From Caldithrix sp. (GTDB lineage Bacteria > Zhuqueibacterota > Zhuqueibacteria > Thermofontimicrobiales > Sulfurfontimicrobiaceae): 38,857 bases of DNA. Below are positions 1-12,903 of this stretch, piece by piece (position 1 is the stretch's first letter; each line of letters begins with the position of its first letter). The DNA is taken from the NCBI GenBank assembly GCA_020722815.1, contig DYKB01000065.1, forward strand, positions 1 through 38,857. The letters are read 5' to 3'. The notes beneath the pieces were generated by a model. The model had not been told where the DNA came from. It saw only the letters and a program-made list of their open reading frames with translations, and did no database searches. A program made the position numbers and the translations under genes.

Positions 1-120
1 GGTCAATAAGGTCGATTGGGTTTGATCGCGCGGCCTGGTTGATTAAAAACCTTATGAACCTGAGGAATTAGTAAAACCGGCGACACAACAAATTTGATAC
101 TATTCCCTGTGATCGGTTAC
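1..120 (+). mobile_element. Partial copy (right end) of a MITE-like repeat family. The window starts inside the element. Terminal inverted repeat CCCTGTGATCGGTTAC at 105..120.
   Basis: About 90% identical over ~120 bp to 29448..29569. Reverse-complement match to 38804..38857. Confidence 0.6.
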
Positions 121-172
121 GAATTAGTATAAATAACTTATTAATTTTGCTATATTTATCACGTTTTACGCA

Positions 173-724
173 TCACGCATTCAACCTTATCAGCAAATCA
201 CTATACGAATCCGGAATCAAATTTTGCGCTGGAATTTTTAATAATTTCAGGTAATTTTCACATTGGGCAGAGAGTTTTTCTTTTCCAATGGTTCCCTCAT
301 AATCAATCGCCTCAATTTCCACAAACTTTCCAAGTTTTTCAACTTCGTCCAAGTGAAATTTGACATTTTCAATCCAATAAATTTCACGTTTTTTGGAAAC
401 GATTATTTTAATTCCAAGTGCCTTTTCTAAAACATCTTTCATCCGGGCAGGATTTGCAATCGGCACCATTGATACCAATGATTGCTGAATTCCAGTTTGT
501 GATTCGCGGTTATAATGAATCAAAACCGCTTCATCCGAACTTTCCCGAAGTTTTAATCGACCATTTGCACAGTTAAAATAAGTATCAACCTGGTGAATTT
601 GTCCTTTTGCAACCGCGTTTTGGCTGAGAAGTATCGCTCGTAAAAAAGCCAAATCATCTGTATCTGCCTTAATTTCCATATTTAAATGACTCAAAAAACA
701 GGTCTCCTTTTCTGCCAGCATCAA
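173..724 (-). CDS. CYTH-domain protein (class IV adenylate cyclase / inorganic triphosphatase family). Family-typical start is probably the internal MEIKAD at ~679.
   Basis: ~180 aa. N-terminal MEIKxD, central basic LKLRE, and C-terminal HLDEVEKLGKFVEIEA segment typical of CyaB/CYTH. Only 3 nt downstream of the flotillin gene. Confidence 0.6.
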   Translation of the reverse strand: MMLAEKETCFLSHLNMEIKADTDDLAFLRAILLSQNAVAKGQIHQVDTYFNCANGRLKLRESSDEAVLIHYNRESQTGIQQSLVSMVPIANPARMKDVLEKALGIKIIVSKKREIYWIENVKFHLDEVEKLGKFVEIEAIDYEGTIGKEKLSAQCENYLKLLKIPAQNLIPDSYSDLLIRLNA

Positions 725-727
725 AAT

Positions 728-2089
728 TTATTTTTGATTCACCTTTTCAGTGGCTGCTGTTTTATTCTGTTTTTGTAGATGACTGAGAATATTGACACCT
801 GTCGCATTCTCAATCTGTTCAACTAACGAAAGAACCGCTGCTGGCATCTGATTCACCAGGCGCGCAACGCCTGTTTGCCCATTCGAACCACCCGTATCGA
901 TGACACTGATCTTATCGATGATGATTTCGCCAATCGTATCAGTAATCTGTTTTATAATTTCCGGCAGCATATTCAGCATGAAAATTTTCTCACCCTCACC
1001 TTTGGCGGTCTGATAAGTTTTAATAGTTTCCAATAAAATTTGAAGTTTTGCCTGGCCATTTTCAATAATTGGTGCAGCCATTCCCTTTGCCTCCAATTCA
1101 GCCGCTTCCTTTTTGGCACGGGCAGGTTCAATCACATCCGCCATTAATTTTTTCTGCTGTAAAATAATTCGTTCCTGCTCCACTTCCTGTTCAAATTTGG
1201 CGCGCGCCTTGAGCCCGGAAACTTTCGCTTCTTCTTCTTTGATGATGGCAATCTTTTCCAGCTCGGCTATTTTCACGCGCAAGTTGTTTTTTTCTTCTTC
1301 AATTTGTCGCTCGGAAATTGCATGTTTGACCTTTACCTCACGGTCCGTATCAATCTGGGCCGCCTGAATTTCGAGCTGTGCTTTGGCTTTGGCAATTTCA
1401 GCACGCTGGGCGGCATTCGCTTCAGCTTCTTCGGCTTCTGCCTTTTTTTCAGCTTCTGCTTTTCGGGCGGCGGCTAAAACTTCGGCTGTTTTCCGGCGGC
1501 CAACTGAATTTAAGTAACCCGCCTCATCGGAAATATTTTGTATTTTTAGCGTATCTAGGTGTAATCCTAATTGCTTCAGATCATTATCCGCTTCATCAAT
1601 CAGACTCGCTGCAAATTTAAGTCGATCTTCATTCACCTCTTCAGGTGTTAACAAAGCCAAAACGCCTCGCAAATTACCTTCCAACGTGTCTTTGGCAATT
1701 TTATGGACCTCGGCTTCTGGTTTTGTCAAAAATCGTTCGACAGCATTCCCAAAAGTCGGTTCACTTGAGTCGACTTTAACGTTCGCAACGGCTTCCATAT
1801 TCAGTGGAATACCCCCTTTAGAATAAGCATTTTTAACGGCCAATTCAAGCGGAATCGTCTGCAATGACATGCGCGCGGCCCGTTCAATTATCGGGATTCG
1901 AATTGTTCGACCACCGCGAATGAGTCGATAGCCAACAACGGAGCCATCCGGAAGCCTTCTTTTTCTTCCCGAAAGGATAATAACTTCATTGGGATGGCAA
2001 ATTAATAAAAAACGACTAATAATTGAAGCAATCACAATAATACCGATTGCAGCAACAACGGCAACCGTGATAATTAAACCTCCGTACAT
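728..2089 (-). CDS. Flotillin-like SPFH (band-7) domain membrane protein
   Basis: N-terminal TM helix, SPFH core, then a long Ala/Glu/Lys-rich coiled-coil (EAEKKAEAEEAEANAAQRAEIAKAKAQ), as in FloT/YqiK-type flotillins. Confidence 0.85.
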   Translation of the reverse strand: MYGGLIITVAVVAAIGIIVIASIISRFLLICHPNEVIILSGRKRRLPDGSVVGYRLIRGGRTIRIPIIERAARMSLQTIPLELAVKNAYSKGGIPLNMEAVANVKVDSSEPTFGNAVERFLTKPEAEVHKIAKDTLEGNLRGVLALLTPEEVNEDRLKFAASLIDEADNDLKQLGLHLDTLKIQNISDEAGYLNSVGRRKTAEVLAAARKAEAEKKAEAEEAEANAAQRAEIAKAKAQLEIQAAQIDTDREVKVKHAISERQIEEEKNNLRVKIAELEKIAIIKEEEAKVSGLKARAKFEQEVEQERIILQQKKLMADVIEPARAKKEAAELEAKGMAAPIIENGQAKLQILLETIKTYQTAKGEGEKIFMLNMLPEIIKQITDTIGEIIIDKISVIDTGGSNGQTGVARLVNQMPAAVLSLVEQIENATGVNILSHLQKQNKTAATEKVNQK

Positions 2090-2100
2090 GATTTTCTCCT

Positions 2101-2766
2101 TTAATTTAATTTTAAAAAATCTTTTTCGGCAATATAAGCAATTCCATTTTTCACTTGCGTAATTAAAGCCTCTTCCCCATAATTAAATTCATCTTTCGAA
2201 GCTTCTCGGGCAATTTGTGCTACCAATTGAATGTTTTGACCGGGTGTTGTTATCAAAATCTTGCCAGCATGTGTGCGTGATAAATTTACAATTACTTTTA
2301 CGGACATTCCTTCCAGCTGACGCAAATCCGTTGAGGAGGTGACTTCATTCTGTTTAAAATAGGTCAGGGCTTTGTATCCAACAATAGCCGTGAAAAGCCC
2401 CATCAAAGTTGAGGTGATAAATGTTACCCATCCGGGTATTTTTTGCCAGGATAAAACCACACCAGTCAATCCGAAGAAAGCCATAAAAAGTACAAAATTT
2501 CGAAGACTGAAATATTTTAATGCTGCGGATAATCCCGCGCTATCGTGTGAAATATCAGTCTCGCTGTTAAAATGCACATCGGAATCAATGGAAGTCTCAA
2601 CATCAGTAGCAATATCATGTTCAATTGCAATATCATGATCAACATCAAAATGAACATCTGAACCCACATCTACATCGGTATCAGTATCCGTATGTGAACC
2701 AAAAAATAGTGTGAAAATTAATAAGGCTCCCCCAAAAATCAGGCAGGCCAGATAAAGGGTGAACAT
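2101..2766 (-). CDS. NfeD-like membrane protein (YuaF/YqiJ family, partner of flotillin) carrying an Asp/His-rich insert
   Basis: TM helices plus a C-terminal OB-fold-like soluble domain. Sits directly upstream of the flotillin gene, as in nfeD-floT/yqiJK operons. Confidence 0.65.
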   Translation of the reverse strand: MFTLYLACLIFGGALLIFTLFFGSHTDTDTDVDVGSDVHFDVDHDIAIEHDIATDVETSIDSDVHFNSETDISHDSAGLSAALKYFSLRNFVLFMAFFGLTGVVLSWQKIPGWVTFITSTLMGLFTAIVGYKALTYFKQNEVTSSTDLRQLEGMSVKVIVNLSRTHAGKILITTPGQNIQLVAQIAREASKDEFNYGEEALITQVKNGIAYIAEKDFLKLN

Positions 2767-2767
2767 C

Positions 2768-3481
2768 TCAGGACTCCTTATCTTTAAGTAGCCGTTTTTT
2801 TAATTGCGCTAATTCATCGACGACAGCTTGTTCCGTCAGATAGCGGTCGAATTGCGCAGATGGATTGAGTATCGTTTCGTAAATTTCTCTATTGGCTTCA
2901 ACTTGCGATTCAAGTTTTAGAATTTCTTCCTCCAGATTATTCATCAAGGTATTCAATTTAAGCAGGGTAAAATCACCAGATTGATCAACTGCAAATTTTG
3001 CATCTGAGTCGAATTCCGATTTCCAGTTTCCGATTTGGTTCTCAACGAGAATTTTTCGCCGTTCCAATTCCTGGCTTTTCTGCTGAACTTTTTCAAATTC
3101 TTTTTCCAAAAGTGCCAGTTCTTGTTTGAATTGGGTGGCAATTTGTGTTGCCTGTTTGAATTCACCTTCTAATTGTGTCCGTGAAGTTTGTATTTGTAAT
3201 TTTTTCGTAATGGCATCGCGGGCTTGTAATTCATTCTCTTTTTCAAATGCTTTTTGAGCTTCCTGTTCAAATATTTCTATTTTCGCATCAATTTCATTAA
3301 TTTGTTGTTCATATTGCTTTTGACAGGTCACCGCCCGAACAGTCTCCCGTCGCAAACGCAGGTGAAGTCCTTCAATTTCGGCGATGAGCTTCTTTATTTT
3401 GATTTCGGGATGCTGTTCAGGTTCCAGTGCGGCATTGAGATTGGCGCGAAAAATTTGATAAATTCGATTAAGCAGCCTCAT
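2768..3481 (-). CDS. pspA: PspA/IM30 (phage-shock protein A / Vipp1 / LiaH) family protein. The ORF track starts at 3496 (TTG), but the ATG at 3481 with a GAGGG RBS fits the family N-terminus.
   Basis: N-terminus MRLLNRIYQIFRANLNAALEPEQHPE matches the PspA start (M..F.R....ANINALL.K.EDP). Rest of the protein is coiled-coil. Only 1 nt gap to nfeD. Confidence 0.8.
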   Translation of the reverse strand: MRLLNRIYQIFRANLNAALEPEQHPEIKIKKLIAEIEGLHLRLRRETVRAVTCQKQYEQQINEIDAKIEIFEQEAQKAFEKENELQARDAITKKLQIQTSRTQLEGEFKQATQIATQFKQELALLEKEFEKVQQKSQELERRKILVENQIGNWKSEFDSDAKFAVDQSGDFTLLKLNTLMNNLEEEILKLESQVEANREIYETILNPSAQFDRYLTEQAVVDELAQLKKRLLKDKES

Positions 3482-3793
3482 AAATTGCCCTCGCAATTTG
3501 CATCTTAAATGATAAAAATTTATTAATACACATCATCAAAAATTGATGTTCCATGATTCGTCGCTGCGTGAAATTACTGGCATCCAGATTCTGGCATGAT
3601 TGAAAAATGATTTTAAGCAAGCAAATCATCCAGGTTAACCTTTGTCATCTTCAGACTTATTTTATACCATTTCAATACGTGAATACGAAACTTAAGGTTT
3701 CATATTTGCACTTTTTGATGAATTTTTCAAATATCTCTGTTTATTAAAGATCACATTATCATTTTTAAAAATCAAGAGAAACTTTGGCTTTGG

Positions 3794-3826
3794 TAAAAAA
3801 AAGGAGTGCCATTTTCAGGGCACTCC
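3794..3826 (-). terminator. Rho-independent terminator on the minus strand (GC hairpin GGAGTGCC/GGCACTCC followed by a T-run when read on the minus strand)
   Basis: Plus strand reads AAAAAAAAGGAGTGCCATTTTCAGGGCACTCC. Confidence 0.5.
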
Positions 3827-4087
3827 TTCCTGGGGTTAGAGATAATACTGAGTCATCTGAGGTTTTGTTTGTGTCATTTTTTCGGAATGAATCGAGGTAG
3901 CTTTATGCAACTTATCATCTGTGTTTTTTCTATAAAGGTGCTCCTTATATAGTGAATGGATATTTTAAATTCTGATTATTTCTATTAATTTTTCTTTGCA
4001 ATCTTTGTTTTAATTTAATTCAAATTATATGCCAATTTATCAATCATTATTTTTCAATAAGTTAGCAATCATCGTGAATTTGACACC

Positions 4088-4123
4088 ATGCAAAATTTGC
4101 AGATCATCCTGCAAATTTTGCAT
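4088..4123. promoter_or_regulatory. Perfect 15-bp inverted repeat ATGCAAAATTTGCAG-N6-CTGCAAATTTTGCAT. A third half-site lies near 4246..4262.
   Basis: Read directly from the sequence. Sits in the ~1 kb non-coding gap between the peptidase stop and the pspA start. Confidence 0.45.
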
Positions 4124-4461
4124 TTTTCGAAAATCGGGAAGTTTGTTTGCACAGGCATTAAGACTGATTTAACGGTGGTTCATTAAGAAATTTCAGAATA
4201 AAAAAAAGCTATGCCTGTATTTTTGGCATAAAATAGTAAAAAAGATGCAAATTTTGCAGGTTGGCATAATTTATTAAAAACCGAATAAGCATTTAAAATT
4301 ATTGAACTTACAGAATTTTGGATAAACCAAATTTTCCACTTTCGTTGATGGCCATTTTTTGAGGTTTCCAAAGAAAAAAATCGATGAAAAATGAAGTGAA
4401 ATTATTAAAATTCCCCCAACTCGAATTAATTAAACAAATTTCGGGGTGATAAAAAAGTGAA

Positions 4462-7400
4462 TTAGCGGAGGAGTAGCATTTTATAGACTTTCTTTAGTGC
4501 AGGCGTCGCGATTGAAGCATAATAAACACCGCTGGGAACAATTTTACCAATCGAATCCTTCCCATCCCAGCTAATTTTATACGAACCCGGAGAATTCCAC
4601 TCATCCCGAAGAACACAAAGCTGGTGGCCAAGGCTGTTATAAATAATGATACGGACCAGACCTGAATTTTCCTGAAAATACCTTATTTGGGTTATTGCAT
4701 TGAAGGGATTTGGGAAGGTCCCAACTGCATATTCTTGGATTATAGACTCCCGGGTATTTTTCAGGTCAGGAGGCGCGGGCGGAAGCAGCGTTAGATTATT
4801 AGGACTTGTGCCTGATATCAACTGGTCAGGATTTAGCGATATTTGAGCAGGACCGGATACGATATTTAAAGTACACTGTTGAGTTGCATAAATCCAATAG
4901 CCTTTCATCGGTTCCAAAAGTGCTGTCCCCGCGGGATAAATGGGAATCACCGATTGTGTATTCGTATCCCATCCATGAACGCTGGTGATAGTACCATCGG
5001 GTTCATCGTTGGGATCGTTAAACGTCACCGGCGCAAGAGGTGAACCGATTAAATGCCAGCCTGGGCTCAATGTTGATTGCAGTTCGTACACCGGAATCCC
5101 TGTAATCGTAAGCGTTTGAGGGCTAGCAACGTGAAGCCAATAGCCGCTATTAGGCAGCAAGCTATCGACCTGTTGATAAATCGTTTGACGATTATTGAAT
5201 ATGTACGCCGCCATATCGTGCGATAAAATTGCATTCACGCGCTGGTTTGCCGGATAAACTGGCACTGAAATAAGATACCAACCAGCTATCGGAAATTCAT
5301 AATTGACCTGAACCGGCCGGGGGGTATAGTCAATCTGAATTAATTGCGCGTGACTGATTTGTGCTGAACTTGAAATCGACATGTCGAGATTCAGATTACC
5401 ACCGCTCAACTGAAAGCAATAATTTTCAATCTGGGGAAGATCGGCAGGCTCCCATGATATTGAAACGGGATTTGCCAATGAATCACCCGTAATTATTTTC
5501 CAGCCGATACTATCGGTGTAAGGCAGGCACCAGGGCTGAATATCCCGAGCTAACGTGTCCTGATCATGTAAGAAAAAATTGGAATACGTCATTCTTACTG
5601 AATCCATCGCTTCATCGAGTCCGGCGTCAAAATCTCTGCTCGCACACGAATCTCCGCCAATCGTCAGATAATAAACAGAATCACCCGTTTCAATTCGGAT
5701 CGGTAACTCCCATTGTGCACCAATTCTACCCCAAATTGGCACCTGAAGAAATCGCTCATCTGAATCATTGCAGACAATTTTAATGAGGCTCTGCTCCTGG
5801 TTGCGACTGATGGCCAGAAAATTAACCCGCAGCGAACAACATTGTCCGGACTCCAGTAAAATGGGCAAAGCATCCAGATTCGTCAGGCGATAATTGGAGG
5901 AATCCAGACGGGTTTCCAACTCAATGTTGAGTAATTGAAGCGCCTGGTTCCCCTGATTAACAATTTTGAGGTATTGTTCTGAAAAAGAGCCCAATTTAAC
6001 CACGCCAAAATCCATTTTTTCGGGAAAAGTCTGAATTTCAGGTCCGAAATTACCAATTTGAAAAACAGAATCACTTTCATCTGAAATTATATCGTCCAGG
6101 CTGCTGATTTTGATTTTGCATTGCTTACTTTCTGGTCCGGAAACCAGCCACAATTCATTCTCATCATTGAAAGTCGAATCCAATAAAGTTTCCCAGCTAA
6201 TTCCATTGTCACGGGTCAATTCAATTTTAATCGCACGATCGTAATTTTTTGCAATCCAGGAAATTGTCTGATTTGAGCCAGGCGACCAAAGGTCTCCACT
6301 TCCCGGACACGTCAGGGAAAGTGATGGCGTGGCGTCGGTTATAAATTTTATTGATAAAGAACCGGTGGTGTTGGCTGCTACCAAAAGCGGCGTCTGTTGC
6401 GAGACAAAAACGCTCTCAGGATTTCGATTTTCATAATTCTCAAACTGCTCAATGGCAAAATAACCAATCCGGGCGGTTTCTGTCGTTGCATTATTTTGAA
6501 CTTTTAAACGCCAATAACCCTGATTTGCTTCGATATATTTGGATAATTCAGAAACATCAAGTACCATAAAATTTGCTGGAAACGAGGAATTACCGCCTTT
6601 TAATTGAAAATCATTAAAAGACTTCGTTTTATAGGTAATGCTTTCATCACAAACATCAATGGAAATCGCACATTGCCCCCGTTGGGGGTGTTGAATTTCG
6701 AAAACAGAAAGTAATTGAGGTTGATAATTTTCGTAATTTTGATAAACCATGTAAAATTTAATGCGCTCTTTTAAACACTGGTATGAAATATAATAAAATC
6801 CATCATGAACCTTTTCCCAATTATAAGTGCCAACGCCCCATGAATTTGCAATTTTGAATGCCCCCCGAAGGTCGGTTTTTCCATTTTCAGGGTAGGGACC
6901 AAAATTATCATCATAACCCACGATAACATTGGCATGATTTACCTCGGTTGCTAGGTAATTATCGGTTGTCCACAGGTCATCATTGGATAATTTTGCATAA
7001 TAACGCGCATCGATGGCAATCAGTGCCAGATTCTGATTGGCAAGTAAACTTTTAAGATTTTGCAGGGCATCATCGGAAGTTAAATCGGTGGTCGCAAAGG
7101 CCGTTGCCGAACGATAAAGGGGTGCTTCGCGCCAGGCTGTTTCGGTAGGCCAGGTGGTGGAATTAAATGGATTATAGGGCATATTTTCCCAGGTGGCACA
7201 ACCGATACGTTCCAGCAGATTCATAGCGTCATAAAAAGTGGCACCCTCATCTTTGCCATCGTTAATCTGGTGATAAATAAAATCTGGCGAAAAAATTTTG
7301 GCATGATATGATGGATCGGGCTGGCCATAATCGTTCTGATTCCAGACACATTTCGAAAGGTCCCATTGGTGTTCGCGTGCTTCCTGGAAGGTTTTAACAT

Positions 7401-7773
7401 AGTACCCACAGGCCCAGCCAATGCAGGAACCTTCACTGTATTGATTACCAATTGGCGGAAACCAGTGGGTCAGGGCATTATCCACCTTATTGGGGAGCTC
7501 CAGCGAAACCGATTGGACATATTCCAATCTAACCGGTGCGCTGGAAATTTCAGCCCACTCACTTTCTGTCGGCGGTCTCAAGCCCGTTCCCTGCCCGAGA
7601 ATCCGCTCATTATAATTTTTTCCTTCCTGGAAAGTACCCAAATATGCTCGTAATTCATCCAATTCTTTTACAGTCAGATGTCTTCTGGTTGTCTTTATGT
7701 GACGCGCAGCCGTCGAAGAAAAAAGTACGAGACAGGTAAACAGGAAAATAGTCCAACGTCGTTTCTGTAACAT
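4462..7773 (-). CDS. Secreted papain-family (C1) cysteine peptidase with a long beta-rich extension and a T9SS C-terminal sorting domain
   Basis: Signal peptide. Catalytic motifs QYSEGSCIGWACGYY (Cys), NHANVIVGYDDNF (His) and NSWGVGTYNW...GFYYISY (Asn/Trp). C-terminus ...SGVYYASIATPALKKVYKMLLLR is a typical Por_Secre_tail. Confidence 0.8.
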   Translation of the reverse strand: MLQKRRWTIFLFTCLVLFSSTAARHIKTTRRHLTVKELDELRAYLGTFQEGKNYNERILGQGTGLRPPTESEWAEISSAPVRLEYVQSVSLELPNKVDNALTHWFPPIGNQYSEGSCIGWACGYYVKTFQEAREHQWDLSKCVWNQNDYGQPDPSYHAKIFSPDFIYHQINDGKDEGATFYDAMNLLERIGCATWENMPYNPFNSTTWPTETAWREAPLYRSATAFATTDLTSDDALQNLKSLLANQNLALIAIDARYYAKLSNDDLWTTDNYLATEVNHANVIVGYDDNFGPYPENGKTDLRGAFKIANSWGVGTYNWEKVHDGFYYISYQCLKERIKFYMVYQNYENYQPQLLSVFEIQHPQRGQCAISIDVCDESITYKTKSFNDFQLKGGNSSFPANFMVLDVSELSKYIEANQGYWRLKVQNNATTETARIGYFAIEQFENYENRNPESVFVSQQTPLLVAANTTGSLSIKFITDATPSLSLTCPGSGDLWSPGSNQTISWIAKNYDRAIKIELTRDNGISWETLLDSTFNDENELWLVSGPESKQCKIKISSLDDIISDESDSVFQIGNFGPEIQTFPEKMDFGVVKLGSFSEQYLKIVNQGNQALQLLNIELETRLDSSNYRLTNLDALPILLESGQCCSLRVNFLAISRNQEQSLIKIVCNDSDERFLQVPIWGRIGAQWELPIRIETGDSVYYLTIGGDSCASRDFDAGLDEAMDSVRMTYSNFFLHDQDTLARDIQPWCLPYTDSIGWKIITGDSLANPVSISWEPADLPQIENYCFQLSGGNLNLDMSISSSAQISHAQLIQIDYTPRPVQVNYEFPIAGWYLISVPVYPANQRVNAILSHDMAAYIFNNRQTIYQQVDSLLPNSGYWLHVASPQTLTITGIPVYELQSTLSPGWHLIGSPLAPVTFNDPNDEPDGTITSVHGWDTNTQSVIPIYPAGTALLEPMKGYWIYATQQCTLNIVSGPAQISLNPDQLISGTSPNNLTLLPPAPPDLKNTRESIIQEYAVGTFPNPFNAITQIRYFQENSGLVRIIIYNSLGHQLCVLRDEWNSPGSYKISWDGKDSIGKIVPSGVYYASIATPALKKVYKMLLLR

Positions 7774-7866
7774 TAACAGGCTCCAAAAAAATCCAGCAAA
7801 TCAGCGACTTTCGATGTTTTAAACCGACCAGAGTTGGAGTAAGTCCGCCTTTACTTTAAAATACTA

Positions 7867-8060
7867 CCTGAAATTCTAAAATGAATCGTTTTCTCTGAAG
7901 TCTTGACCCCCTCTGTCTCTCCCCCATTTTCAAAAAGCGAAAATGGGGGAGAGAATCTCGCTTTATCTCCCCCAAAATTCCGCTTTTTAGAATTTGGGGA
8001 GGCAGGAGGGGGTCATACATTGATTCTGAACATCAAAAATTTCCATTTTAGAATTTTAGG
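7867..8060. mobile_element. MITE-like insertion of 194 bp. Imperfect 17-bp TIRs CCTGAAATTCTAAAATG / CATTTTAGAATTTTAGG. 5-bp target-site duplication TACTA on both sides (7862..7866 and 8061..8065).
   Basis: The interior is a nest of GC-rich hairpins (TCTCCCCCATTTTC/GAAAATGGGGGAGA; CTCCCCCAAAATTC/GAATTTGGGGAG; outer GACCCCCTC/GAGGGGGTC). Confidence 0.6.
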
Positions 8061-8496
8061 TACTACATGAAAACTTGCTTCTTTTTAACCGGGAGTTGGA
8101 TTCCATTTGACTATTTGTTCATCCTGATTTTCATTTTACATCACATTTGAATGTTTGTTGCTAATTTTAAATAATTGAAATTTCAATAATTCAATATTAT
8201 AAAATAGCAATTATTTTTTAAAAAGTCAAATATATTTTTTAACACGATTGCAATCAATTCTGCAGTCCTGTCAATTAAAATTTAACCCAATCTCCTTTTC
8301 CACCTGGCACTATTTCAAGTTTTATACCAGATTAGCGTAATCTAACATTATGATAATAAATAAGTTATATTTTTAAAATAATAACAATCTCCCCTAAAAA
8401 GAGACAAGAAATTTCGATTCGAACGATGGACAATAGATATAATTGTTAGAAATTTTGTATTAATTAACCAACTAAAATTATTCAGATACCCATAAA

Positions 8497-8533
8497 TAAA
8501 AAAAGCCCTGAAATCCATCTCAGGGCTTTTTGA
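8497..8533. terminator. Bidirectional intrinsic-terminator-like hairpin (A-run, AGCCCTGA / TCAGGGCT, T-run) in the middle of a 1.2-kb intergenic region
   Basis: AAAAAAAGCCCTGAAATCCATCTCAGGGCTTTTTG. Confidence 0.4.
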
Positions 8534-9023
8534 AAATAACCAGGAAAACGGAGGGAGGAAAAGTACGTTATCCTGCAAAAAATATTAGGGTGTATAAGGA
8601 AACTTGAAGGGACACACTGTCCCAATTTAATACAAAAAATCCAGCAATATATTTTGAAATGTATGCTATTTAATAAAATTATAATATATAGTCTGATTTA
8701 TTCCAATTTTGCTCCTTTAATTAAAATAGTGATATATTTTGTAATTGTCAAGTCTTTTTTCATCTTAATTCATTTTTTTTAATTCGGATTCCTGCTTAAA
8801 TGAACGAAGAGAGATTTAATGTACAGAACGAATACGTATATTACTCAGATTCCATAAAGAAATCGTAAAAAAGACTTGAATCTAATCAAATTGATCATTA
8901 TACTTTTATTGTTTTTCATCGAGATGCGGTTCTAATTTTTATGAAAAACACAGAAATGGCAGGTCTCAATAAAAAACGCGATTTATTTAATAGACCCTTA
9001 CTCATAAAATGGAGGAATTAAAA

Positions 9024-9875
9024 ATGAAACAATCAACACGCCGAGATTTTTTTAAACTAGCCGGAACCGGTGTTCTCTCCGCGTCATTTTTATCGTCAAT
9101 TAGTCCAGACGATTTAAGTGCCATGCCAGAGAAGAAATCCGGCCAACCCCTGCTCAATCTCGGAATGGCTTCCTATACTTTTCGAAAATTTAGTATGGAA
9201 AAGACTATTGAAATGACCAAAAGGCTGGGTCTGAAACACATTGCTTTTAAAAGCATGCACTTGCCACTGGAAAGTACAGCGGACGAGGTTCGGGCAGTCG
9301 CCGCAAAAGTAAAAGAAGCGGGTCTCGATCTCTATGGCTGTGGCGTTGTTTATATGAAAGATGAAGCATCCGTGCAGCAGGCCTTTGATTATGCAAAAGC
9401 GGCAGGGATGAAGGTCATTATCGGCGTTCCCAACCATGAGTTACTTGAACTTGTGGAACTGAAAGTTAAAGAATTCGATATTCAGGTTGCCATCCATAAT
9501 CATGGACCGGGCGACAAATTATATCCAACACCGGAGAGTATTTACGAGAAGATTAAAAAGCTTGATTCGCGAATTGGCCTCTGCGTTGATATTGGCCATA
9601 CCCAACGCGTCGCGATTGATCCCTCAGCGGCGGTAAAAAAATATCAAGATCGACTGCTCGATATCCATGTTAAAGACGTGAGTGCATCAACGCCTGAAGG
9701 TAAAACCGTCGAAATTGGACGCGGGGTAATTGATATTCCCAAATTTTTAAAAACACTTATTAAGTTGAAATATACCGGAAAAGTGTCACTTGAATACGAA
9801 AAGGATGAAGCCGATCCACTTCCGGGTGCGGCGGAATCGATTGGTTATTTGAGAGGGGTTTTGGCGTTACTATAG
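9024..9875 (+). CDS. Tat-signal sugar-phosphate isomerase/epimerase (xylose-isomerase-like TIM barrel). Start taken at the ATG preceded by GGAGG; the ORF track begins at 9009.
   Basis: Twin-arginine motif STRRDFFKLAG. TIM-barrel AP-endonuclease/xylose-isomerase-like fold motifs (IHNHGPGD, CVDIGH). Confidence 0.75.
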   Translation: MKQSTRRDFFKLAGTGVLSASFLSSISPDDLSAMPEKKSGQPLLNLGMASYTFRKFSMEKTIEMTKRLGLKHIAFKSMHLPLESTADEVRAVAAKVKEAGLDLYGCGVVYMKDEASVQQAFDYAKAAGMKVIIGVPNHELLELVELKVKEFDIQVAIHNHGPGDKLYPTPESIYEKIKKLDSRIGLCVDIGHTQRVAIDPSAAVKKYQDRLLDIHVKDVSASTPEGKTVEIGRGVIDIPKFLKTLIKLKYTGKVSLEYEKDEADPLPGAAESIGYLRGVLALL

Positions 9876-9894
9876 TTTTATGTATTCCCCAATT

Positions 9895-9942
9895 TAATTA
9901 AAAACCGGCGGATGTGTTCTTTTCCGCCGGCTTATATTTTTG
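9895..9942. terminator. Bidirectional rho-independent terminator between convergent genes
   Basis: AAAAACCGGCGGA-tgtgttctttt-TCCGCCGGCTT followed by ATATTTTT. A-run on the other side. Confidence 0.6.
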
Positions 9943-9951
9943 CTAAATTAA

Positions 9952-12903
9952 TTACTTTTGCTCCGTATAAATCGTCACCATCACTCGCCGATTCAACTGT
10001 CTTCCCAGTGCTGTTTCATTATCCCCAAGGAGAATCTTTTCGTCAGTTGGAGAAAGAAATTCCAGCGGTTCATTTTCACCATGTCCTTCCGGCGCATCGA
10101 TCCGGTGGCGAATTTGATTAAAAATATCCGGATATCGTGATTTTAAATCTTTCACAAATTGCTCATGGAAAATTCTGGCGCGGCGAATGGAAAGAATTTT
10201 ATTCACTCCTTCCGGGCCAACTGCACAGCCATGGCCGACAAATTTGATTCGCTTATCCGGTGACTGTATTAAATGCGGTATCATATCTTCCAGATTTGAC
10301 CAGTAAAAATTATAATACGGTTTGGCCTCGGCAAATTTGGCGATGAGATAATAAGATCGTTCAATATTTGTTTTTTCAGTATTTAAAACAGCATTCTTTA
10401 GTCGGGTGCGAAATTTACGGCCCAATGAATCAGTTAATGTTAATGAATAACCCAGATTTTGAATTTCACCATTAATCTGCTCCTTTAAACGTGATTCAGA
10501 TATTTGCCAATCAAATGGCCTGAAGAGTCGATTTTTAGCAAATTTTGATAAAATACTAACCAGATCGGAGGTTTCATTTAACTCAAGGGCCATAAATGCG
10601 CTTTCAAGCGCAACGGCACTGCTGATTTCACCATTAAATTGGATGGGAAAAAATTCTTTTCGCTTGTTTACCGATTGAACCGGATAAAATAAGACTTTTT
10701 CAATCGATTCTTCAATAGAAATCGTAACGTATCTTCGTTCTTCCAGGATGTGTCGCGCATCGTTTTGATTTTTTGGTAATGTGCGTTTTGCAAGGAGTTC
10801 ACCAGGCATTATCATAATTTGTTCTGAACGAACTCCCAATTTTATCAGTGAATCACGGACCGCCAGGGCGCGCGCGTTCGCCAGATTCACATTTATTTCA
10901 TCAGCGTTGGGATCAGCCGTGCCCTGGAGCCTGACTTTCAAATCCCGCTGCTCATTCAATCTTCTGGCAAAATAGGTGAGCGGCGGCAGAACGGAAGAAA
11001 TTTTCCCAAATTGATTTTTGATAACAGCACTATTTTGCCCGAAAAAGATTTTCCCGATGTAGGGCAACTCAAAAATTTTCGTATAGACTTTTGCTGCCAA
11101 TAGTGTATCCGCAGTAAAGAATCGCCCTTTGGGAATTGTAAAAAACTTTTCTGTTCGCTGTGTATGCAATTTTGTGGTTAAGCTATCTTCCGACTTCACT
11201 ATTTTGGCAGAAATTGCATGTAACCCCGGTGTCGAAGTGTGCCATCCAATGACAACGGCAGTTGAATCACCTGATTTTAAATCAGGAATATCTTTTTTTG
11301 CCATTGCAGGACGAACAGAATGGATCGAATCCGAATTGACCGATTTCTCGGGATTCGCTTTGGCCGGAAAATTATCAAAAAGCTGAAGCTGAAAATTTTT
11401 CGCGACCTTTTCACCTAAATTCTTAATGACAATTTTCAATTTCCCCTGGTAATCATCTTCAGTAATCCAGGAATCCGGTTCAAAAACAAAAGCCAAAATC
11501 TCGGGATCAGGCGCTGTCAAAGTAAAGTTGGCAATTTTATGGCGGCCCCGGTTTGCGAAACGAATATGCTGATCCCGATCATAAGCAAAAACCAGCCAAT
11601 AATATTTACCGGAATTTAACCGGGTGCTCAAAAATTCGGTTTGAAGCAGTCGTTCATTGATATGGAAGTTCATTTTCGGTAATTCATAAATGAGACTGAC
11701 GGGATCTTCCTGACTTTTTTTAATAACGTCCACCAACTTAACGCTATCTTTGCTGGCAAGCAGCCAATAGTTCAAATTATCATAAAGATCAGGATCGCGC
11801 GATGCTTCCCAGCGAAAAGGAACGGCATCTTCATCAATTTGAGCCCCCATTTCAGGCGATTCCATTTGAAATCGCTCGGGAAGCAGCGGTTGATGGGTCA
11901 CCGTCCCATGATAGGGCGCATCAAAAAAGCTATTTTCCTGATTAAGCGCCAGATCAACCCGGAGGGCATTATTTCGGCCTGGAAATAAGTTTTGAAAAAC
12001 CTGATCATTCAGTTGAAGGCTGCCCCCAACCGTTAAATTTCCCAACAAATTATCTTCCAGGCTAAATCCCATCTGAATTGCAATAAAATTCCGCCAGGAA
12101 AGTTCAGTCCCTAACGATAAAAAGCCTTCTTCATCCTTCACCTGACGGTAATCGATACCCGTGCTCAATTGAACTCCCCGATGTGAACCCAGATGCAGGG
12201 CGGTACCCATCCGAAAAGTTTCGGGAAGGGGTGTTCCTTGATTATTGTAGTGAATTTCGTCGCCCAGATTATTGATACCAATACCGGCGGTAAAAATCGC
12301 GTACTCAAAAGCATTAAATGATGCCGACTCAAAATTAATTCTCGGCGAACGAAACAGAATCCCTGTATCAAAAATAACGGCATTGGCATTAAAATCTGCC
12401 AATTGGCTGTTGAAATATTTGATATTAAATCCCCAGAGCAAATTGGGTGTCAGCTTACTTAAGGGTTGACCAATACTCATGGTTGCCACGAGATGATGCC
12501 CACCAACGCCAGCCGTGGTCGCGCGCGCACTATTAAATGTAGGAATTCCCAGATAATTCACCCCCAAAATCATTCGTGTCTGCTGGCTGATGGGATTCCG
12601 CAGTCGACGACCAAAGAGGAAAGTCGTATGATAAATATCCGAAACCCAGGTTGAATAACTGCTGGACCAGAACCATTCACGGCTCAAGCCGGTGGCTGCC
12701 GGATTTGAAAAATAGGAATATGAATAATCGAGTACACTGGTTGTGCTACCGGCCATCCCGACACCGCGTGCATCGGGAACGATTTTCAAGTAGCCAATTC
12801 CGGAGCGAATTTGCCCATAACTTAATCCAAAGATCAGGAGGATGAGACAAAATCCGGTAGTTACATTCTTTATATGGTTTATTTGTATTTTTCTCATGTT
12901 CAC
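9952..12903 (-). CDS. Outer-membrane protein: N-terminal beta-barrel (PorP/SprF- or PorV-like, uncertain), central CARDB-like region, two C-terminal OmpA-like peptidoglycan-binding domains. Putative anchor/partner for the upstream T9SS adhesin.
   Basis: Signal peptide. Aromatic-rich alternating beta-strand N-terminal ~330 aa ending in a C-terminal Phe-type barrel pattern. OmpA-like cores LQGTADPNADEINVNLANARALAVRDSL and FVGHGCAVGPEGVNKILSIRRARIF...APEGHGENEP. 9 bp downstream of the adhesin gene. Confidence 0.55.
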   Translation of the reverse strand: MNMRKIQINHIKNVTTGFCLILLIFGLSYGQIRSGIGYLKIVPDARGVGMAGSTTSVLDYSYSYFSNPAATGLSREWFWSSSYSTWVSDIYHTTFLFGRRLRNPISQQTRMILGVNYLGIPTFNSARATTAGVGGHHLVATMSIGQPLSKLTPNLLWGFNIKYFNSQLADFNANAVIFDTGILFRSPRINFESASFNAFEYAIFTAGIGINNLGDEIHYNNQGTPLPETFRMGTALHLGSHRGVQLSTGIDYRQVKDEEGFLSLGTELSWRNFIAIQMGFSLEDNLLGNLTVGGSLQLNDQVFQNLFPGRNNALRVDLALNQENSFFDAPYHGTVTHQPLLPERFQMESPEMGAQIDEDAVPFRWEASRDPDLYDNLNYWLLASKDSVKLVDVIKKSQEDPVSLIYELPKMNFHINERLLQTEFLSTRLNSGKYYWLVFAYDRDQHIRFANRGRHKIANFTLTAPDPEILAFVFEPDSWITEDDYQGKLKIVIKNLGEKVAKNFQLQLFDNFPAKANPEKSVNSDSIHSVRPAMAKKDIPDLKSGDSTAVVIGWHTSTPGLHAISAKIVKSEDSLTTKLHTQRTEKFFTIPKGRFFTADTLLAAKVYTKIFELPYIGKIFFGQNSAVIKNQFGKISSVLPPLTYFARRLNEQRDLKVRLQGTADPNADEINVNLANARALAVRDSLIKLGVRSEQIMIMPGELLAKRTLPKNQNDARHILEERRYVTISIEESIEKVLFYPVQSVNKRKEFFPIQFNGEISSAVALESAFMALELNETSDLVSILSKFAKNRLFRPFDWQISESRLKEQINGEIQNLGYSLTLTDSLGRKFRTRLKNAVLNTEKTNIERSYYLIAKFAEAKPYYNFYWSNLEDMIPHLIQSPDKRIKFVGHGCAVGPEGVNKILSIRRARIFHEQFVKDLKSRYPDIFNQIRHRIDAPEGHGENEPLEFLSPTDEKILLGDNETALGRQLNRRVMVTIYTEQK

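Follow-up and report, generated by a model that had tools for sequence, protein, structure and literature searches.

Gene triads that encode a PspA-family protein, an NfeD-like protein and a flotillin have already been described, in a 2024 survey (PMC11237479) and by Popp et al. 2022 (PMC9239133), the latter for Acidobacteriota, where PspA occurs together with NfeD and Band 7/FloT. Other arrangements of the same protein types include the yuaF(nfeD2)-floT dyad of Bacillus subtilis, the yqiJ-yqiK dyad of Escherichia coli and the B. subtilis pspA-ydjGHI (samGHI) operon, in which an SPFH protein connects PspA to the membrane (PMC8581546). Here, we report the analysis of a copy of this triad followed by a gene for a CYTH-domain protein, located on a stretch of 38,857 nucleotides from Caldithrix sp. 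(contig DYKB01000065.1 of assembly GCA_020722815.1), the whole of which is referred to below as the window.

The window locus holds the same three protein types as the triads of the two surveys, in the order PspA, NfeD-like protein and flotillin and with the same tight packing, and direct orthologs of its triad are found in metagenome-assembled genomes (MAGs) of Calditrichota, Desulfobacterota-like bacteria, Omnitrophota and Acidobacteriota. It differs from the surveyed triads in having neither a CesT/Tir chaperone nor an AAA+ ATPase, and in carrying a CYTH gene at its 3' end. CYTH is not mentioned or reported in the accessible portions of these two systematic surveys of PspA neighbourhoods, main texts and supplements included, in line with an earlier note on this DNA which had placed CYTH outside the described module. 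No literature linking "CYTH domain" with flotillin, or "triphosphate tunnel metalloenzyme" with phage shock, was found among the papers searched. The yuaF-floT and yqiJ-yqiK dyads resemble the locus in having a small NfeD-like membrane protein directly upstream of the flotillin, and the structure of B. subtilis YuaF (2k14) is matched by the C-terminal domain of the window NfeD-like family; unlike the window, those operons contain no PspA. Further differences are the Asp-rich linker in the NfeD-like protein of the window and the score of its flotillin on the equivalog model for FloT, NF058507, which is just 163 bits (cut-off 700). The pspA-ydjGHI operon likewise combines PspA, membrane anchors and an SPFH protein, but the latter, YdjI, is cytosolic and depends for its recruitment on the zinc-ribbon and TPM-domain proteins YdjG and YdjH (PMC8581546), and it is no transmembrane-anchored flotillin paired with a protein of YuaF type. 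The gene contents are analogous and not orthologous.

Four consecutive open reading frames (ORFs) lie on the minus strand at 2768..3496, 2101..2766, 728..2089 and 173..724 if the longest ORFs are taken. The gaps between them are then 1, 11 and 3 nt, which agrees with the spacing of 1-12 nt given in the earlier note. After correction of the CYTH start codon the gaps become 1, 11 and 33 nt, and a Shine-Dalgarno (SD) sequence precedes every gene. The features of the locus are as follows.

2768..3481, minus strand: pspA, encoding a PspA/IM30 (ESCRT-III-like) protein of 237 aa (PF04012; TIGR02977 below cut-off; structure match; public gene call)
2101..2766, minus strand: gene for a putative YqiJ/YuaF-type NfeD-like membrane protein of 221 aa (ortholog profile; flotillin adjacency)
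728..2089, minus strand: gene for a flotillin of 453 aa (PF01145; NF058507 below cut-off; human flotillin-1 alignment)
695..727, minus strand: flotillin-CYTH spacer of 33 nt, carrying the CYTH SD AAGGAG at 709-704 (sequence)
173..694, minus strand: gene for a stand-alone CYTH protein/triphosphate tunnel metalloenzyme (TTM) of 173 aa with the motif N5-x-E7-x-K9 (PF01928; AF2 model; structure matches)
3795..3828, minus strand: intrinsic-terminator-like hairpin, AAGGAGTGCC-N8-GGCACTCCTT followed by a T-run (sequence; minimum free energy fold; kept in the relatives L090 and L091)

CYTH is the final gene of this run, and the window ends 172 nt beyond it. In contig CCWRPB010000125.1 of assembly GCA_973313415.1, which includes the window sequence, the distance from CYTH to the contig end is 427 nt. 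In the relatives a convergent FHA-domain gene comes next, so that CYTH closes the same-strand run. We read positions 728-3481 as a copy of the known triad in candidate division KSB1 and CYTH as a lineage-specific tail gene, probably of triphosphatase type, for which a functional link to the triad is unsupported, and we assign this reading a probability of roughly 0.72. The CYTH neighbour is most likely an incidental passenger of the triad, and the results indicate that the four-gene arrangement has gone undescribed as a rare and local one.

The identities proposed in the earlier note for the four products, and its view of the first three as a known module (PMC11237479, PMC9239133, PMC8581546), were borne out, with Pfam matches for PspA, flotillin and CYTH and an ortholog profile for NfeD. 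PspA matches PF04012 (PspA_IM30; E=2.6e-12, 47.2 bits, cut-off 33.9), and its residues 1-232 align with residues 1-218 of the PspA/Vipp1 structures 8qbw/6zvr (E=3e-9). On TIGR02977, the equivalog model for E. coli PspA, it scores 53.4 bits (cut-off 242.95), and it is a divergent member of the PspA family and no E. coli-type ortholog. Its start is most likely ATG 3481, in agreement with the public gene call, the longest ORF beginning at TTG 3496. The flotillin consists of an N-terminal transmembrane (TM) helix, an SPFH/Band-7 domain (PF01145, Band_7; E=8e-21, 75.3 bits, cut-off 23.6), an Ala/Glu-rich coiled coil and a flotillin C-terminal region. Residues 29-446 align with residues 3-428 of human flotillin-1 (9l3g; E=2e-39), and the likeness therefore extends beyond the SPFH domain across the coiled coil and the C-terminal region. 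A flotillin of candidate division KSB1 in the public annotation is 97% identical to that of the window.

The gene between them starts 1 nt after the pspA stop codon and is separated from the flotillin gene by 11 nt. In its product, a TM helix at the N-terminus is followed by an Asp-rich linker, by two more TM helices and, at the C-terminus, by a putative domain of NfeD type. A Pfam search with the window protein itself gave no match, and the public record lists a "faint" match to NfeD_TM; PF01957 (NfeD) is matched by 4 of 25 orthologs, and a profile built from the 25 matches the C-terminal domain of YuaF (PDB 2k14) with E=2e-4. In 78 of 80 flotillin loci of other species, the gene immediately upstream of flotillin is an ortholog of it. 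The protein is thus designated "NfeD" of the YqiJ/YuaF type, a predicted identity reached only through the ortholog profile. The linker between the first and second TM helices (residues ~24-75) is Asp-rich, contains His and is of low complexity (DTDTDVDVGSDVHFDVDHD...); it gave spurious weak matches to Ser-Asp-repeat adhesins, and its D-x-D-x pattern is also present in the consensus of the 25 orthologs.

The start codon of CYTH bears on the layout of the run. An SD sequence, AAGGAG, lies 9 nt upstream of TTG 694, and the string AAGGAG-N9-TTG AGT CAY YTG AAT is kept in four related contigs (L090, L091, L002 and L008). The conserved TTG is preceded in L002, at a distance of 6 codons, by an in-frame stop codon, and 103 of 120 CYTH homologs have just 3-4 residues ahead of the N-x-E-x-K motif. 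Together, the conserved SD and TTG, the stop in L002 and the short N-termini place CYTH at 173..694. TTG 694 (173 aa, MSHLNMEIKA...) is most likely the start, judged from these comparisons, and the spacer to flotillin is therefore 33 nt instead of 3. Two other starts were considered and rejected: ATG 679, the public gene call (168 aa), corresponds to a Leu codon in L002 and L091, and TTG 724, the start of the longest ORF, lies in a stretch for which L002 has a stop upstream of the conserved TTG.

Recurrence of the CYTH link outside the immediate relatives was surveyed from both sides. An alignment of 25 flotillins was used to collect 80 loci from species-representative genomes (48-71% identity, 7-kb flanks), the gene content of which was scored with hidden Markov models built in this analysis. 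PspA is encoded upstream in 17 of the 80, in KSB1-like, Calditrichota, Desulfobacterota-like, Omnitrophota and Acidobacteriota genomes, and a CYTH gene lies within 7 kb of flotillin in 0 of the 80. From the other side, 80 metagenome loci with a CYTH gene from this subfamily (48-57% identity) were examined, which add up to 531 kb and of which 49 exceed 4 kb; PspA, the NfeD-like protein or flotillin was found near CYTH in 0/80, and on clustering of the neighbours no family recurs in more than 5/80. The nearest CYTH relatives outside the clade described below, at 57-59% identity, are stand-alone, and the subfamily is a ubiquitous "solo" gene with no fixed neighbours. In the next KSB1 relative (L093/L094, flotillin 75% identical), the order is a CHASE2-sigma54 activator, PspA, NfeD, flotillin and then a convergent methyltransferase; CYTH is absent from this triad locus. 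The activator (688 aa, directly upstream of pspA; L093 1-2921, and L094), absent from the window, may represent a PspF-like regulator that carries a sensor domain in the membrane.

Adjacency of CYTH to flotillin was found only in four closely related lineages, represented by L090 (GCA_016932535.1), the sister species L091/L092 (GCA_974003575.1, GCA_022730055.1), L002/L003 and L008, in all of which CYTH follows flotillin. Their identity to the window is 92-97% for flotillin, 72-92% for PspA and 74-81% for CYTH. The flanks are shared as well: upstream, L090 has in common with the window an OmpA-like gene, an AP_endonuc_2 gene and a gene for a 1103-aa protein, the last of which also lies upstream in L091, and downstream L090, L091 and L002 have in common FHA, FHA-GAF, FGGY kinase and 392-aa protein genes. 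Synteny reaches furthest in L090, over about 17 kb, the others having been followed as far as their contigs go. As the flanking genes are also shared, the adjacency is better explained by one ancestral event and descent than by repeated selection, and its presence within the clade adds no independent evidence. Thus, the co-localisation that the earlier note had named as a test of its proposal is missing from every relative outside one genus-level clade, while inside that clade CYTH is indeed adjacent.

The triad and CYTH do not have one common recent history, as seen from two contrasts when the window is set against L090. At the nucleotide level, the identity is ~90% over 4085-735 (upstream block, pspA, nfeD and flotillin; ~91% for pspA to flotillin taken separately) and ~78% in CYTH, the drop falling at the flotillin/CYTH gene boundary, and synonymous divergence (dS) is 0.30-0.57 for the triad and 1.42 for CYTH. 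Recombination or a different constraint could be the cause. Identity to L090 across window positions 1-10200 is a mosaic, with 93-98% in the AP_endonuc_2 gene (8700-9850) and 66-88% in the 1103-aa protein gene, a pattern suggestive of recombination, in tracts, among related populations of KSB1.

The junction itself varies within the clade. In L091 and L092, an insertion of 290 nt made up of hairpin repeats parts flotillin and CYTH, and a gap of 654 nt lies between NfeD and flotillin. Repeats rich in hairpins, among them GGACAAATTGTTAATTTGTCC and GGGCAAATTGACAATTTGCCC, lie in several intergenic gaps of this sister species (L091 7347-8000, 9357-9646 and ~4860-5000; L092 1451-1740), where they occupy the NfeD-flotillin gap, the flotillin-CYTH gap and the DNA upstream of the palindromes that precede pspA, and they look like repetitive extragenic palindromic (REP) elements or miniature inverted-repeat transposable elements (MITEs). 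Such an insertion ahead of CYTH would probably impede read-through, and the gene is nevertheless intact there and has the same SD; this is one reason to consider that CYTH is transcribed independently, from a promoter in the 3' end of flotillin. A sigma70-like sequence at 813-786 on the minus strand would serve this role, but the match is weak, at 9/12 positions, and shuffled sequence gives matches that are just as good (15 found vs 12 expected). The alternative has a second form in which CYTH is tied functionally to the downstream convergent FHA/FHA-GAF signalling genes, since FHA genes and genes that match GAF weakly are constant neighbours in the clade. Against this form, no FHA or GAF family recurs beside the CYTH subfamily in the 80 other loci, the GAF matches are weak or faint, and a link through cyclic nucleotide binding by GAF is unlikely because the enzyme is without cyclase determinants. 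In either form we consider this explanation unlikely, and prefer to see in CYTH a passenger at the end of the triad that is plausibly, given the 33-nt spacer, co-transcribed with flotillin in this genome.

The product of CYTH matches PF01928 with E=1.9e-13 (51.1 bits, cut-off 23.2), and the assignment of the last ORF to CYTH made in the earlier note is thereby confirmed at the level of the profile. Its AlphaFold (AF2) model (pLDDT 96.2) has the eight-stranded tunnel fold and matches TTM structures at a TM score of ~0.8: the triphosphatase SaTTM (Saci_0718; 7ns9), which is the top structural match, the Pyrococcus proteins PH1012 (2dc4) and Pfu-838710 (1yem), and the class IV adenylate cyclase (AC-IV) CyaB of Yersinia pestis (2fjt/3n0z). 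All of these are, like the window protein, single-domain tunnel folds of ~170-180 aa, with only 20-24% sequence identity to it. They also differ from it in the ExExK hallmark, of which the window protein (N5-M-E7-I-K9) retains the Lys and the second Glu but has Asn for the first Glu; the same Asn is found in 117 of 120 members of the subfamily. To our knowledge, there is no characterised example of Asn in this position. The C-terminal metal-binding motif ExE is E126-I-E128, with ExE in 120/120 members, and a basic ladder (R46/K48/R50, K101/R103) is conserved along with the acidic E126-x-E128. The enzyme is most likely a triphosphatase-type tunnel metalloenzyme, predicted to hydrolyse triphosphate, a nucleoside triphosphate or a similar substrate.

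The earlier note had left open the option of a class IV adenylate cyclase, and several homologs are named as such at source. The best sequence-profile matches include the AC-IV of Y. pestis (E=8e-12), the similarity of the model to that enzyme is as given above (TM score ~0.8), and the sole NCBIfam match is to TIGR00318. Three determinants characterise a true AC-IV (Vogt et al. 2021, PMC8233210): HF four residues ahead of ExExK (HFxxxxExExK), an xxRxR motif whose first Arg is exchanged for a small neutral residue (V61 in YpCyaB), and ExA instead of ExE in strand beta-8, the second Glu being strictly Ala. The window protein and 120/120 homologs fail all three. HF occurs at the cyclase-motif position in 0/120 members, and the window protein has just four residues (MSHL) before the motif; the gatekeeper is the basic Lys48, invariant in 120/120 and with its register backed by alignment to the RVR of PH1012; and E128 is present where YpCyaB aligns as E-I-A. 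An HF-like "CF" at the cyclase-motif spacing would need the start at 724, in an extension that is unconserved and untranslatable in L002. On TIGR00318 the window protein scores 47 bits (cut-off 57.95), and 9 of 9 subfamily members miss that equivalog cut-off, at 39-51 bits. These results, together with SaTTM as the top structural match, leave a cAMP-producing CyaB-type cyclase very improbable, and the triphosphatase assignment is kept. Members of the subfamily, 50-59% identical to the window protein, occur in MAGs of Bacteroidota, KSB1, the candidate phyla radiation (CPR) and archaea, and the name "class IV adenylate cyclase" in several public records is probably a systematic misannotation.

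In the model that we propose, drawn from characterised members of the families, the inner membrane would bear an SPFH scaffold formed by the flotillin, and the NfeD-like protein, itself a small membrane protein, would partner the flotillin through its C-terminal domain. PspA, an ESCRT-III-type polymer, would be recruited where stressed membrane is to be sealed or remodelled. A stand-alone CYTH gene would have been placed directly downstream of the triad, ahead of the convergent FHA-domain gene, in the ancestor of a single genus-level clade of KSB1; in this genome, where it has its own ribosome binding site and the 33-nt spacer, it would probably be read through from the flotillin transcript.

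Several points weigh against this reading, and some of them speak instead for CYTH as a true fourth component in the KSB1 clade, co-induced by membrane stress and active at flotillin microdomains, with triphosphate, polyphosphate or nucleotides as its substrates. The same-strand packing, the short spacer and the gene's own SD fit genuine operon membership, and the flotillin-CYTH interval of the window is without a visible terminator or a convincing promoter; no hairpin with a T-run was seen there by inspection of the sequence or by a minus-strand terminator scan, which did not pick up the hairpin at 3795-3828 either. The adjacency has lasted across four diverged lineages with dS above 1, and the ratio of non-synonymous to synonymous divergence in CYTH (dN/dS 0.07-0.11) marks it as a functional gene under purifying selection; selection for the linkage is possible. 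The surveys covered this flotillin subfamily and this CYTH subfamily, 80 loci each. With regard to the enzyme, Asn replaces Glu in ExExK, and the predicted activity rests on motif rules taken from other subfamilies.

Nevertheless, the fourth-component explanation is unlikely. The link is absent from 80/80 flotillin loci, 80/80 CYTH loci and the nearest outgroup KSB1 genome, the flanking synteny is likewise kept in the clade, L091 and L092 tolerate a 290-nt repeat insertion at the junction, the evolutionary histories are decoupled at the flotillin/CYTH boundary, and literature precedent is lacking. A more specific proposal, that an N-x-E-x-K triphosphatase-type CYTH was captured into the triad stress operon in one KSB1 genus and, being co-induced, couples damage of the membrane to a hydrolysis reaction at flotillin microdomains, with triphosphate, polyphosphate or a nucleotide as the substrate, seems to us quite unlikely. 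The suggestion in the earlier note that CYTH couples envelope stress to nucleotide or polyphosphate chemistry is not upheld, as the adjacency is confined to one clade with shared flanks.

Psp/flotillin systems are known mostly as structural membrane-repair machines. If CYTH truly worked with PspA and flotillin, it would be the first triphosphate- or nucleotide-acting enzymatic partner of such systems, and its capture would give a Psp-type system a lineage-specific enzymatic output. The comparative evidence goes against a partnership and for a known triad beside which CYTH was juxtaposed once in a narrow clade. The value of the locus lies in documenting a PspA-NfeD-flotillin operon in KSB1, in the corrected CYTH start codon, and in drawing attention to a large and widespread CYTH subfamily that is often labelled "class IV adenylate cyclase" but has no cyclase determinants and carries Asn for the first motif Glu.

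Upstream of pspA, the terminator-like hairpin at 3795-3828 lies at a distance of ~310 nt and is predicted to end a separate upstream transcription unit, from which it follows that the promoter of the pspA run would be expected between ~3794 and 3482. Consensus promoters and terminators were scanned for over positions 1-4500 and compared with shuffled sequence; promoter-like sites were no commoner than in shuffles, and no minus-strand terminator was listed by a scan which also passed over the hairpin at 3795-3828. A sigma54 promoter was considered, because the relative with the 75%-identical flotillin has a CHASE2-sigma54 activator beside pspA; the only candidate is an imperfect TGGCAT-N5-TTGA, which is situated upstream of the terminator and does not adjoin pspA.

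A 13-nt palindrome, TGCAAA(W)TTTGCA, occurs three times upstream of pspA (4246-4258, 4110-4122 and 4089-4101), and the whole window has 5 matches vs 0.42 expected by chance. An exact fourth copy, TGCAAATTTTGCA, lies within the pspA coding region at 2990-3002 and is kept in L090 and L008 and not in L091. The upstream palindromes are followed by TTGGCATATAATTTGAA, possibly a sigma54-like element (TGGCAT-N5-TTGA) or a TATAAT box, and then by a block of ~240 nt (window ~3795-4040) ending in the hairpin 3795-3828, which is near-identical in the window, L090 and L091, the intergenic DNA on either side of it being 40-70% identical among the three. The region of palindromes and block corresponds to 3795-4260 (minus strand) in the window, ~5820-6300 in L090 and ~5140-5650 in L091. 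We regard the block as a candidate for a small RNA under regulation or for a micro-ORF. Its fold z-score is only -1.6; the Rfam gathering scan and the tRNA scan of the whole window gave no matches, and an Rfam E-value scan of the gap upstream of pspA gave chance-level matches only (E >0.3).

Further upstream, the 1103-aa protein (4462-7773, minus strand) has an N-terminal signal-like segment, a sub-threshold Ig-like Pfam match and a C-terminal tail that, as judged from the sequence, resembles a type IX secretion system (T9SS) sorting domain. It is fast-evolving, with 75% identity to its counterpart in L090 vs 97% for flotillin.

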